NCBI GenBank assembly: GCA_046497485.1
Contig: JAWOFP010000010.1
Location: 1-21,428 of the forward strand
DNA length: 21,428 bases
Origin: Candidatus Nanohaloarchaea archaeon
GTDB taxonomy: Archaea; Nanohalarchaeota; Nanosalinia; Nanosalinales; Nanosalinaceae
Direction of reading: 5' to 3'
Shown: positions 3,001 to 6,000 of the stretch, piece after piece
Layout: each line of letters opens with the position of its first letter
How positions within the stretch are numbered: position 1 is the first letter of the stretch
Program-made: the position numbers

Positions 3001-6000
3001 GAGAAGAAACAGCATTTACACCAGACTGATAAAGAGTACAAGATTCTTCCTCCAGGGTCAGTAGAAGTGGACGGAGAGCTTAAACTTGCGTTAACGGAGG
3101 TGAAAAATTAATGGTAACCTCTATGCTCAAAGACCTAATTCAAATTAATTCAGTAAGCGGGAAAGAAGAAGAAATCATAGAATATATCTACAGCTATGCA
3201 GAAGAGAAAAATTTTAATCCTCAGAAAATAGGGAGGAACGTGATTTTCAGCTTGGGAGATGGTGAAAAAAAGCTGATCTTAAACTCTCATATAGATACAG
3301 TTGAGGCCTCGGGAGACTGGGAAGTTGATCCGTTTGAAGCTGTAGAAAAAGATGGCAAGATCTATGGTTTAGGCAGCTCAGATAACAAGGGATCTGCGGC
3401 AGCAATGCTTAAAGCAGCTGAGAAAATAAAAGAATCAAATCTGGATAAAGAAGTAATTTTCACCTTTGTAGAAAGAGAAGAGCTTGATGGTTCTGGAACT
3501 AAAAAAGTGATAGATTGGCTCAAAGAAAACAAAGAGCTGGAAAAGTCCGCGGCAGTAATCGGAGAGCCAACAGGCTTAGAGAAAGTCTTGGAAGGATGCA
3601 AAGGTACATCATGGATAAAATTAACAACGAAGATGGAAGGCGGTCACGCATCTAAAGATTTGGAAAACCCGATCGAAGCAGTCTACAAAGTGCTGGAACA
3701 GTTCCAAGATAAGATGGAAAAATTTAATGAGCCTAAACCTAAAATTGAATTGACAAGCATAAAAGCGGGCGACAGCATAAATAAAATCCCTTCAAAAACT
3801 GTGGCAAAGTTCGATATTCGAACAGTTCCAGAGTTCACAGCTGAAGATGTAAAAGAGACCCTTGAAGAGATCACTGAAGGCCTAGAAGCAGAATCGGGTT
3901 TTGAATTCGCTGAGCAACCTTGCCCAGCTTCAAACAGCAAAGATTCTAATATAGTTAATTTTGTGAAGGAAAAAACGGATGCAGGTTCTGAGTTCGCTAA
4001 AGCTGCTAATGATTCATGCTTCTTCACAGAAAATAAAATTAATGCTGCAGTGATTGGACCAGGGCAGGAAGAAACAATTCACAAGCCTGATGAATACATA
4101 GAAAAATCCAAACTAAAGAAAGGCGTTAAAGTTTACAAGGAGATTGCTGAGACCTGGTGATTAGAGTTCGTAGCTCAGCCTGGACAGAGCACTCGGCTTC
4201 TAAACCTCAAGTCTCTAGAAGAGACGGGGGCTGAGAAGATCTCTGATCTTCGAGAAGGATACCGAGTCGTCGAGGGTTCAAATCCCTCCGAACTCGTAAG
4301 GTCTGTAGCTCAGCTGGGACAGAGCAGATGGCTACGAACCATCAGGTCCTGGGTTCAAATCCCAGCAGGCCTGAAAATAAGTTTAAAACAACAAAGGAGG
4401 AAAAACTCAACATGACTAAAATAAAAAGCACACTTGCGGAGCTTGTCGAAGAACAAATAGGAATAGAAGTAACTGAAAACGATATTGAGAGGGCTGACAG
4501 GCACGCAGACTTCGCATATCCATGCATGGCTGCAAGCTCAGAACTTGGAAAAAGTCCGAGAGATATAGCTGAAGACCTATCCAACAACATTGAAGATGAT
4601 ATAATTGAATCGATGGAAGTAGCAGGCCCAGGATACCTAAACTTTCATTTAGATAGAGAAAAATACGCGGAAAAAATCGATGAAGAGTTAAGTTCTGAGG
4701 CTTTCGGAGTCAAACAAAAAGATGATAAAGTATTGGTAGAGTTCTCGTGTCCTAATCTGGCTAAGCCTATGCATATTGGTCATTTAAGGAATAATTTTTT
4801 AGGGGATTCTCTTCAGAGAATCATGCGTTTTGTCGGTCATGATGTGACTTCAGAAAACTATATTGGTGACTGGGGTACTAAGCACGGCCAGGTTATCTAT
4901 GCCTTCAAGAAATGGGGTTCGATGGAAGAATTTGAAGAAGATCCTATGGGCCATATGTATGAACTTTATGTTAAGCTCCATGATAAGGCCTCTGAGGAAG
5001 ATAAGCGTAAGTCTCGTGAATGGTCCAAAAAAATTGAAGAAGGAGACGAAGAAGCAGTTGAACTTTGGGAGATGTTCAGAGAGGCTACTATAGAGCATAA
5101 TGAAAGCGAGTATGAGAGAATGGGGATCAGTTTTGACCGTGTCACGGGAGAATCTGTAGTAGCAGAGGAAGCACAAGGAATAATTGAAGAAGGCCTTGAA
5201 AAAGGGATATTTCAGGAAGATGAAGATGGAAGTATCTATGTAGAGTTTGAGAAAGAAGAACTTCCTTCAACTGTGGTTAAGCGTGATGATGGATCTACAC
5301 TCTACCTTTCTAGAGATGTTGCAAATATCAGGAAGCGTGAACGCGAAGGATTTGATCAGAATCTTTACATCGTCGCAAATGAGCAGGATCTGCACTTCCA
5401 ACAGCTTTTCGCAATCGCTGAAAGATTTGGGATAGAGATCCACAGCGAGCACATATCTTATGGGATGCTTCATCTTCAAGACGGTTCGATATCATCAAGC
5501 AAAGGAAACATCATAACATTTGGAGAAGTAATGGATGAGGCAGTAGAAAAGGCCTCGGAAATAGAAGGTAGAGATATAGATAATGATGAAGCAGTAGGGC
5601 TTGGAGCATTAAAATACGCAAATCTATCAGTTTCCAGACCTAAAGACATTAGTTTCAGCTGGGAGCAAGTTCTCAGCTTTGAAGGAGATTCCGGTCCATA
5701 TCTTCAGTACTCGAACGTCCGAGCTAAAAGCATCTTGAGAGATGCCTCAAATTCAGGAAGTTTCGATGGAGAATTCAATGATCAGGAATATGAATTGTTG
5801 AAGAAGTTAGCAGAGTTCCCGGAAAAGGTTGAAGCTGCAGCTGAGCAGAGAGAACCTGCTAAGATCGCCAATTATCTTTCAACTCTATCTGAGGAGTTCA
5901 ATAGCTTCTACCATGAATGTGAAGTCCTAGGTTCAGAAGAGGAAGAGAAAAGGTTGAAACTGGTTGAACTATTTGTAGACGTCAGCGATCAAGGCCTGGA

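Follow-up and report, generated by a model that had tools for sequence, protein, structure and literature searches.

Reviews state that archaea possess neither tRNA genes with ANN anticodons nor an A34 deaminase (PMC11066159, PMC8007984), and wobble inosine is likewise reported to be absent from archaea (PMC8007984). Nevertheless, the initial annotation of the locus described here was too strong in holding that archaea lack A34 tRNAs: a survey lists tRNA-Arg-ACG in 2 of 167 archaeal genomes, and its text describes archaeal ANN genes as recent species-specific gains with no effect on codon usage (PMC6000648). Published archaeal ACG tRNAs include those of H. jeotgali B3 and M. ruminantium M1. 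In bacteria and chloroplasts, tRNA-Arg(ACG) is converted to the ICG form by TadA, and systems with inosine at position 34 are described as normally excluding the GCG isoacceptor (PMC8007984, PMC8879553). Naturally unmodified A34 is reported for Mycoplasma tRNA-Thr(AGU), yeast mitochondrial tRNA-Arg(ACG) and a fraction of M. capricolum tRNA-Arg(ACG) (PMC11066159, PMC3711424). According to one of these sources, A34 without modification shows a preference for U, with other bases tolerated in G/C-rich boxes (PMC11066159). Our literature search returned no relevant prior report on nanohaloarchaeal or DPANN anticodon sets.

The tRNA-Arg(ACG) gene analyzed here belongs to a nanohaloarchaeal contig of 21,428 nucleotides (the window) from a small hypersaline organism, with the following features relevant to the argument:

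3111..4160, plus strand, gene for an ArgE/DapE-family M20 deacylase (Pfam; TIGR01910 at 193.5 bits, below the cut-off)
4164..4296, plus strand, tRNA-Arg(UCU) with an intron after position 37 (ARAGORN; Rfam, 51.2 bits)
4297..4298, plus strand, 2-nt spacer TA between the UCU and ACG tRNAs (sequence)
4299..4373, plus strand, tRNA-Arg(ACG), 75 nt (ARAGORN; Rfam RF00005, 63.5 bits)
4374..4411, plus strand, 38-nt spacer between the ACG tRNA and argS (sequence)
4412..6034, plus strand, argS, arginyl-tRNA synthetase, 540 aa (Pfam tRNA-synt_1d, DALR_1 and Arg_tRNA_synt_N)
21241..21312, minus strand, tRNA-Arg(GCG) (ARAGORN; Rfam, 65.9 bits)

The contig carries archaeal hallmark genes, namely topoisomerase VI A and B, deoxyhypusine synthase and the universal KH protein of archaea (arCOG04150), and the intron-bearing tRNAs likewise mark it as archaeal. 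The M20 deacylase gene stops 3 nt before the tRNA-Arg(UCU) gene, which is the only TCT gene that ARAGORN finds in the genome and contains an intron of 46 nt by the ARAGORN call or 58 nt by the canonical 37/38 splice. The tandem placing of the ACG gene, 2 nt after this tRNA and 38 nt ahead of argS, is as originally annotated. The 2-nt spacer is too short for a separate promoter, which suggests that the two tRNAs come from a single precursor; a conserved TATA-like box was not found 5' of the UCU tRNA, where the candidate TTTACA is replaced by TCTACA in the related contig L069 discussed below. The argS product matches TIGR00456 at 440 bits and has homologues in 59 of 61 genomes; an in-frame ATG at 4328, inside the tRNA, was rejected as the argS start because the alignment with relatives begins at residue 1 of the 540-aa protein. 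The tRNA-Arg set that ARAGORN detects in the genome consists of ACG, TCT, GCG, TCG and CCT genes, in agreement with the earlier statement that GCG and TCG are present and that CCG is not found. The two GCG calls, C46:21241-21312 in the window and C23:4-75, represent one gene in overlapping contig ends.

The ACG gene scores well above the RF00005 gathering score of 29, in a match that covers model positions 1-71, and ARAGORN agrees with this assignment. As read from the sequence, the anticodon occupies positions 4334-4336, with A34 at 4334, and all four stems are paired with a single wobble, U4-G69; U8, A14, G18-G19, G53-T54-T55-C56 and A58 are visible in the Rfam alignment. The gene has A1-U72 as its first pair and G73 as discriminator, CCA is not encoded, and the anticodon loop is CUACGAA with A37, so that the gene is well formed, as had been noted. 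The A1-U72 pair, previously pointed out as an oddity, is shared by the initiator tRNA and the two tRNA-Gln genes of the same genome. The minimum free energy fold of the bare sequence differs from the cloverleaf (-32.0 vs. -26.2 kcal/mol), an observation to which we give no weight against the covariance-model score. Arginine identity elements are A20, C35, G36 and a purine at position 73. The ACG tRNA contains A20, C35, G36 and G73, and is accordingly assigned as an Arg isoacceptor; position 34 is unlikely to be an identity element given that the UCG, UCU, CCU and GCG tRNAs of the genome differ there.

A single base decides the reading of the anticodon, and the initial annotation, having found the gene in none of the relatives it examined, left room for a sequencing error or a decaying duplicate. 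This concern is dispelled by L069, an independent metagenome contig from another project, which shows the same gene order with 84.6% DNA identity over 3.77 kb and in which the ACG tRNA is identical at 73 of 75 positions, with the ACG anticodon retained. Both changes, at 4316 and 4326, fall at unpaired positions. Third codon positions of the neighboring genes are far more diverged, being 57% identical in argS and 66.5% identical in the syntenic M20 gene (91% and 85% identity, respectively, at the protein level). The essential UCU tRNA is as well conserved as the ACG tRNA, with two loop changes in its exons, but its intron is only 73% identical. The 2-nt spacer is TAA in L069, and the 38-nt spacer is identical at 38 of 38 positions; all 75-nt windows with at least 97% identity to L069 start at 4298-4364. 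Two changes are observed in the ACG tRNA against 20-32 expected at neutral rates; for 75 sites, at most two changes have a probability of 2e-8 at the intron rate and of 4e-4 even at the regional mean. Contigs from three further studies (X1, X6 and X7) carry both loop variants, with no change at 4334-4336 among the differences listed and an additional A in the 2-nt spacer in one contig of X7. No run on record as RNA was among those listed for the locus, and the contigs of all four runs compared are DNA. The sequences represent essentially two species-level lineages and close variants, and across the two lineages the pattern of substitution indicates that the gene is under clear purifying selection. 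Because L069, diverged by about 35-43% at third positions, keeps the ACG anticodon with only two loop changes, we conclude from this comparison that neither an error in the consensus nor the decay of a copy accounts for the gene.

The possibility that the gene is a functionless, neutral recent or decaying duplicate, or an assembly artefact, has several points in its favor, namely its redundancy with the GCG and UCG tRNAs, its detection in only one of the 70 genomes of the phylum (the source genome itself), the survey description of archaeal ANN genes as recent gains (PMC6000648), and a published description of unusual archaeal tRNA calls as often being fragments (PMC9897764). Against it, the gene has its full length and unbroken stems, unlike a fragment or pseudogene, it is present in an independent assembly within a stable context, and its substitutions fall far below the neutral expectation. 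Among the 19 window ORFs searched, of which 8 matched no family, NCBIfam named no integrase-type family. Recent recombination of a 200-bp block with the L069 lineage is argued against by the diverged intron inside that block. Taken together, these sequence patterns make the neutral or artefactual reading strongly disfavored, and we regard it as very unlikely.

Genes of this type are rare in the phylum and among archaea in general. The argS loci scanned in 29 relatives showed neither an ACG tRNA nor any tRNA additional to the TCT gene; in 12 of these loci, argS is preceded at 0.8-1.4 kb by a TCT gene on the same strand, and in G033 and G030 a TCG-TCT tandem follows a paralog of the ArgRS gene. 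The other matches to the tRNA pattern in the phylum are three tRNA-Val(TAC) genes and one non-tRNA sequence, and D-arm-like matches in G045, G054 and G026 are not ACG tRNAs. The pattern scans assume an intron-less 3' half or the Arg-type D arm of the phylum, and unusual ACG genes could escape them. In another archaeal phylum, ARAGORN identifies tRNA-Arg(ACG) genes (L085, L087, L088 and L089) in 4 of 329 genomes; a further pattern match (L086) is not an ACG tRNA. Two other matches, L090 and L091, fall within introns of other tRNAs. The four genes of the other phylum are genuine by ARAGORN and archaeal, like the gene in the window, but they belong to dense arrays in which 6-18 tRNA genes occupy about 3 kb and which have an accessory look, and they have A/U-rich bodies of unrelated sequence, with G37 in two of the four.

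A metagenome pattern scan yielded five loci. Only L069 comes from a relative; L067, where the free position is T, does not match a tRNA, L068 and L071 hold ACG tRNAs of bacterial look (the former with encoded CCA and none of its three ORFs matching an NCBIfam family, the latter with 69% GC), and L070 lies within a 14-tRNA array and has no ARAGORN call. Among viral sequences, the scan gave one large contig (177 kb) with a 14-tRNA array that includes an ACG tRNA, with no link to the gene in the window seen beyond the common arm. The exact 22-nt arm had no match among the genome contigs scanned, and a looser pattern matched at least 122 loci there; the 80 titles among the matches listed are all bacterial and thus uninformative on archaea. 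The species-specific gains in the published survey share with our gene the archaeal chromosome, the anticodon and the lack of a visible codon-usage shift, but are described as being of unknown origin, whereas the gene in the window is kept in two lineages, a distinction that holds as far as that description goes, and lies in a core tRNA-Arg/argS context (PMC6000648). Sporadic archaeal tRNA-Arg(ACG) genes are already in print, and a gene apparently maintained across two species goes beyond their description as recent gains.

With regard to origin, the ACG gene had been considered a copy of a TCG gene that diverged and exchanged T34 for A, a view that finds partial support. In favor of this derivation, positions 2-28 are 96% identical to the second-type TCG tRNA of G033 and G030, which has the same GGGACA D loop and is likewise in tandem with a tRNA-Arg(UCU) beside an ArgRS gene. 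However, the anticodon and T stems differ, TCG, TCT and CCT genes resemble it about equally in overall identity, and the closest Arg tRNAs fetched are at most 79% identical overall. The G033/G030 tRNA also has the reversed tandem order, a different 3' acceptor strand, U34 and G37. From these similarities, the second-type tRNA-Arg(UCG) is a likely evolutionary source of the ACG gene rather than its ortholog.

The earlier statement that no TadA/ADAT-type deaminase is recognizable stands for the 97%-complete genome, with unassembled pieces lying outside the search: PF14437 and PF02137 have no matches, the sole match to NF008113 (TadA) scores 11.8 bits and contains three stops, and a six-frame scan of the genome for the HAE...PCxxC motif found none; the TadA search controls were positive in 12 of 14 reference genomes. 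The accompanying claim of only one cytidine/dCMP deaminase-family gene has to be amended: PF00383 detects two proteins of CAE...PCGxC type, both of which score as cytidine deaminases, the second being a divergent 168-aa protein with a CAE/PCGAC signature (C50:5968-6471). Given that no TadA/ADAT2-type enzyme was found, A34 most likely stays adenosine.

Conversion of A34 to inosine by a non-TadA-like enzyme in an otherwise functional tRNA, be it the C50 paralog, an archaeal m1I57-forming activity or a host-cell enzyme, appears quite improbable to us, and less probable still with a non-TadA/ADAT2 deaminase such as the paralog itself in that role. The tRNA does resemble TadA substrates: the anticodon, the CUACGAA loop and A37 are identical to those of bacterial and chloroplast tRNA-Arg(ACG), including the E. 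coli tRNA-Arg(ICG) loop, whereas the GCG and UCG tRNAs of the genome have G37, and some of the bacterial and phage ACG tRNAs fetched (L068, L071 and L084) have an identical 22-nt anticodon arm and variable loop. The paralog is moreover patchy among relatives, with 62-71% identical matches in three of them among the 61 genomes searched (G000 included). However, the three carriers (G042, G036 and G016) are without the ACG tRNA, the paralog, which carries the CAE/PCGAC signature, has free-nucleoside cytidine deaminases as its best PDB and NCBIfam matches, and its neighbors are deacetylase-like and kinase-like ORFs, not annotated by any search, rather than tRNA genes. The reported absence of wobble inosine and A34 deaminases from archaea points in the same direction (PMC8007984). 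In contrast to TadA-ICG systems, the genome also retains the GCG isoacceptor, and in contrast to bacterial ACG tRNAs, the D and T arms are of the tRNA-Arg type of the phylum, CCA is not encoded, and the flanking genes are an intron-bearing tRNA and an argS, both archaeal.

Codon usage does not agree with the earlier description of CGU as the preferred codon. AGA and AGG together account for 77% of the Arg codons and CGN for 23%; CGT represents 8% genome-wide and shows no enrichment in the cluster of ribosomal-protein genes, where it makes up 14 of 178 Arg codons (8%). Its share of CGN, 0.34, is the same as the share of T in other four-codon boxes, and in relatives without the ACG tRNA CGT varies from 4% to 19%, as much as or above the level in this genome, by counts from crudely called ORFs that are unreliable for G043 at 71-76% GC3. 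In archaea, CGU and CGC are normally read by tRNA-Arg(GCG). Judging by the gene set, the ACG tRNA is redundant for decoding because both tRNA-Arg(GCG) and tRNA-Arg(UCG) are present. As to a selective benefit of such a redundant tRNA, codon usage shows no special need.

The lack of a visible codon-usage need is compatible with the ACG element being kept mainly for a non-decoding role in a UCU-ACG-argS transcript, either as a processing or punctuation signal or as an ArgRS-binding tRNA that defines the 5' end of argS mRNA or controls its translation. The fully conserved 38-nt spacer contains GGAGG 11 nt ahead of the argS ATG and no oligo-T terminator on reading its sequence, which suggests read-through into argS, and tRNA-Arg genes recur beside argS in the phylum, as in the 12 of 29 loci and the G033 and G030 tandems described above. 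Nevertheless, every feature of a working tRNA is retained, the changes fit a tRNA pattern and equal those of the UCU tRNA, and argS of 29 relatives does without the ACG element. We therefore consider a mainly non-decoding role unlikely, although regulatory and decoding roles could coexist.

The explanation that we favor, with somewhat better than even confidence, is that the gene encodes a genuine, selectively maintained extra tRNA-Arg(ACG), with A34 most likely unmodified, which is predicted to function in decoding as a supplementary isoacceptor. Under this scenario, the gene, which now stands second in a UCU-ACG unit directly upstream of argS, would derive from the tRNA-Arg genes of the lineage itself, and the tRNA is probably cut from a precursor that it shares with the essential tRNA-Arg(UCU). 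The unmodified A34 of the charged tRNA would read CGU via a Watson-Crick A-U pair and perhaps weakly read other CGN codons, with no risk of miscoding given that all four codons specify arginine, and the tRNA would act beside tRNA-Arg(GCG) and tRNA-Arg(UCG). We infer transcription, charging, the unmodified state of A34 and decoding from the genomic sequence. As far as the unmodified-A34 systems are described in the sources cited above, this resembles them in the combination of an A34 gene, a reduced genome, no or weak A34 deaminase and a four-fold box in which promiscuity is harmless. Unlike the Mycoplasma and mitochondrial A34 tRNAs, which are the sole or main readers of their boxes in minimal sets, the ACG tRNA is accompanied here by GCG and UCG readers.

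The locus presents an archaeal A34 tRNA under purifying selection beside the normally excluding G34 isoacceptor, in a genome without a recognizable deaminase. In an E. coli study of orthogonal tRNAs, every ACG variant was reported to be inosine-modified, so that unmodified A34 was not obtained in the CGN box (PMC11066159); if expressed and unmodified, the tRNA described here would be a natural case of genuine A34 decoding in that box. If A34 were instead converted by a non-TadA enzyme, Archaea would provide their first case of wobble inosine and of an A34 deaminase, the latter with an evolutionary origin separate from that of the enzyme in bacteria and eukaryotes. The gene also raises the question of the advantage by which a redundant isoacceptor serving a rare codon is maintained in a genome of about 1 Mb.

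The locus is organized as follows:
4164-4296, intron-bearing tRNA-Arg(UCU), intron after position 37, ending two bases 5' of the ACG tRNA gene
4299-4373, + strand, tRNA-Arg(ACG), 75 nt, identified by ARAGORN
4412-6034, argS, with its start 38 bases 3' of the ACG tRNA gene

The ACG tRNA gene covers the whole Rfam tRNA model (63.5 bits, threshold 29). Direct reading reveals completely paired acceptor, D, anticodon and T stems with a single wobble (U4-G69), an A1-U72 first pair, discriminator G, the anticodon loop CUACGAA and no encoded CCA. The A1-U72 pair, regarded as unusual in the initial annotation, is shared by the initiator tRNA and the two tRNA-Gln genes of this genome. 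There is no oligo-T stretch between the tRNA pair and argS, which has a GGAGG placed 11 nt 5' of its ATG. That the contig is archaeal is evident from genes for both subunits of topoisomerase VI (A and B), for deoxyhypusine synthase and for arCOG04150, a KH protein universal in archaea, and from additional intron-bearing tRNAs. Genes of arginine and polyamine metabolism are abundant around the locus (142-915, 3111-4160, 4164-6034 and 7423-8427), namely those for an agmatinase-like protein, an ArgE/DapE-family (M20) deacylase, the two tRNA-Arg, ArgRS and deoxyhypusine synthase.

A scan of metagenome contigs with the anticodon arm, leaving position 34 free, identified five loci, including L069, a contig from a separate assembly project that aligns with window positions 2516-6286 at 84.6% identity (3.77-kb alignment). 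The gene order is the same, i.e., M20 deacylase, tRNA-Arg(UCU) with an intron, tRNA-Arg(ACG), argS and tRNA-Phe, and the protein identities (85% for the M20 deacylase and 91% for ArgRS) indicate that L069 represents a different species-level lineage.

Identity between the window and L069
argS, third codon positions: 57%
M20 deacylase gene, third codon positions: 66.5%
tRNA-Arg(UCU) intron: 73%
tRNA-Arg(ACG): 73/75
spacer between tRNA-Arg(ACG) and argS: 38/38

Within the ACG tRNA, one change maps to the D loop (4316) and the other to position 26 (4326), and the anticodon is the same. All 75-nt windows of this alignment with at least 97% identity start at 4298-4364; the probability of seeing no more than two changes in 75 sites is 2e-8 at the rate of the intron and 4e-4 at the regional mean. 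The mature tRNA-Arg(UCU), the only reader of the commonest Arg codon of this genome, likewise shows exactly two changes, both in loops. Contigs from public runs of three further studies (X1, X6 and X7) contain both loop variants of L069, and one of them also the extra spacer base of L069; among the differences listed for these contigs, none falls on positions 4334-4336, which is weak support for ACG. The main doubt of the initial annotation was that an error in the consensus or a duplicate in decay could produce the same picture; given the conservation in the diverged L069 locus and in the other runs, either is very unlikely. The L069 data also argue strongly against neutrality of the gene.

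The genome (0.97 Mb in 66 contigs, 41.5% G+C, 97% complete) encodes, according to ARAGORN, tRNA-Arg with anticodons GCG, UCG, CCU, UCU and ACG, and no tRNA-Arg(CCG) was found in this whole-genome search. The two GCG calls lie on contig ends that overlap by about 190 identical bases (window 21239-21428 and C23:1-190) and thus represent one gene; the two contigs can be joined. With G34 and U34 tRNAs already covering the CGN box, the ACG tRNA is an extra reader. The only metagenomes that contain at least one fifth of the sampled words of the locus are from brine and hypersaline lakes; the organism is probably a nanohaloarchaeon. Outside the Arg set, an intron-bearing tRNA with the loop CUUAUAA, i.e., tRNA-Ile(UAU), is encoded at C32:25272-25395 (- strand), and ARAGORN identifies only two CAU tRNAs, one initiator-like and one elongator-like; a passage of PMC6000648 reports that the UAU anticodon is nearly absent in archaea and present in Korarchaeum and Nanoarchaeum. 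Two near-identical intron-bearing tRNA-Thr(UGU) genes (C25:10599-10688 and C28:1829-1917) differ only inside the intron and reflect either a true duplication or strain-level variants assembled into different contigs.

The ACG tRNA is 72-74% identical to the UCG, UCU and CCU genes of the same genome and differs from them in the acceptor, anticodon and T stems; it did not arise by recent copying of one of them. Among relatives, a second-type tRNA-Arg(UCG) of G033 and G030 matches positions 2-28 at 96% identity, and the tRNA-Arg(UCU) of G015 and G029 matches positions 46-72, also at 96%; overall identity to any fetched Arg tRNA is at most 79%. The proposed derivation from a UCG copy by a T34 to A change fits the 5' portion and is not matched over the entire gene; it is possible. 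The simplest origin would be duplication within the tRNA-Arg family of this lineage. The second-type UCG gene belongs to a UCG-UCU tandem directly 3' of an ArgRS paralog (L007, G033:C3:283-918; L026, G030:C97:4-428), a second ArgRS with 46-53% identity of which the 3' end is seen; several relatives have at least two ArgRS matches. A small number of ACG tRNAs, from phage or of bacterial appearance, have exactly the same anticodon arm and variable loop, which we do not count as evidence of transfer because only the 5-bp stem is free to vary. One such tRNA-Arg(ACG) is encoded in a 176,695-base viral contig (L084) with 14 tRNA genes in 2.2 kb.

The sequences that best match the ACG tRNA in 60 relatives are other Arg tRNAs (73-85% identity), and ARAGORN found no ACG in the 29 loci fetched for these matches. 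ArgRS homologs are present in 59 of 61 genomes. Of the 29 argS loci fetched from relatives, 12 contain a same-strand tRNA-Arg(UCU) 0.8-1.4 kb 5' of argS, and none has an ACG tRNA or a second tRNA beside UCU. Scanning 70 genomes of the phylum with two patterns, one built around the T arm and the other around the Arg-type D arm, yielded a true ACG tRNA in this genome only, although both patterns may miss unusual genes and the T-arm pattern in addition overlooks genes whose intron follows position 37. The remaining matches were tRNA-Val(UAC) or non-tRNA sequences.

The 2-nt spacing of the tRNA genes implies a shared precursor and, together with the lack of oligo-T before argS, suggests a single UCU-ACG(-argS) transcript that would be processed by RNase P and RNase Z. 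Alternatively, the element could be mainly regulatory or involved in processing for argS. The ACG tRNA carries nucleotides that we take to be Arg identity elements. As a decoding tRNA, it would keep adenosine at position 34, there being no recognizable A34 deaminase, and would pair best with CGU. It may also read the other CGN codons to some extent, this box being G/C-rich; a passage of PMC11066159 describes reading beyond U by A34 in such a box.

The earlier statement that no ADAT/TadA-type tRNA deaminase is recognizable withstands six-frame searches of the genome: PF14437 and PF02137 gave no match and the TadA model NF008113 only an 11.8-bit match containing three stops, whereas the controls give matches in reference bacteria. 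Instead of the single cytidine deaminase-family gene reported initially, PF00383 detects two ORFs. One is a typical cytidine deaminase (97.8 bits against NF004064). The other is a divergent paralog, for which cytidine deaminases are again the best matches in both the family and the PDB searches:
C50:5968-6471 (= L062:1381-1887), - strand, divergent 168-aa cytidine deaminase-fold protein, CAE...PCGAC

A genome-wide motif scan found no HAE...PCxxC form, only these two ORFs and one chance match. Inosine could still be formed at A34 by an unrecognized enzyme. Among 61 genomes searched, this one included, three relatives encode 62-71% identical matches to the paralog, one with an internal TAG; all three lack the ACG tRNA, which speaks against a dedicated A34 role of this protein. 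The paralog is flanked by a 231-aa ORF and a 335-aa ORF that, by eye on the translations, look like a polysaccharide deacetylase and a small-molecule kinase, respectively.

Codon counts do not support CGU as the preferred codon that the initial annotation assumed. Among the 718 ORFs that encode 150 aa or more, the Arg codon counts are AGA 5969, AGG 2150, CGT 844, CGA 762, CGG 523 and CGC 338, so that CGN accounts for 23% and CGT for 8% of Arg codons, and the T share of the CGN box (0.34) equals that of the Leu, Thr and Ser boxes. CGT is not enriched in the ribosomal protein cluster (14 of 178 Arg codons, 8%), and four relatives lacking the ACG tRNA show 4-19% CGT in this cluster and 6-17% in background regions; thus, there is no codon-usage signal for the ACG tRNA. 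PMC6000648 likewise reports no codon-usage effect for the published archaeal ANN gains.

Passages of PMC11066159, PMC8007984 and PMC8879553 state that archaea lack ANN tRNA genes and an A34 deaminase. Nevertheless, the ACG gene type is not new in archaea: PMC6000648 lists tRNA-Arg(ACG) for two of 167 archaeal genomes. Genuine tRNA-Arg(ACG) genes are present in 4 of 329 genomes of another archaeal phylum, all within dense tRNA arrays, and in none of 301 sampled genomes of a third phylum. These arrays (L085, G142:C114; L087, G215:C1 near 361000; L088, G219:C100; L089, G225:C61) each comprise 6-18 tRNA genes in about 3 kb, including tRNA-Arg(ACG), look accessory or mobile, and may, as a guess, be of one kind with the ACG gene published for M. 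ruminantium. We found no paper on an ACG tRNA in nanohaloarchaea or DPANN. What is new is the phylum, the core tRNA-Arg/argS setting and the evidence, from sequence comparison, of purifying selection over two lineages with a G34 isoacceptor alongside and no recognizable deaminase.
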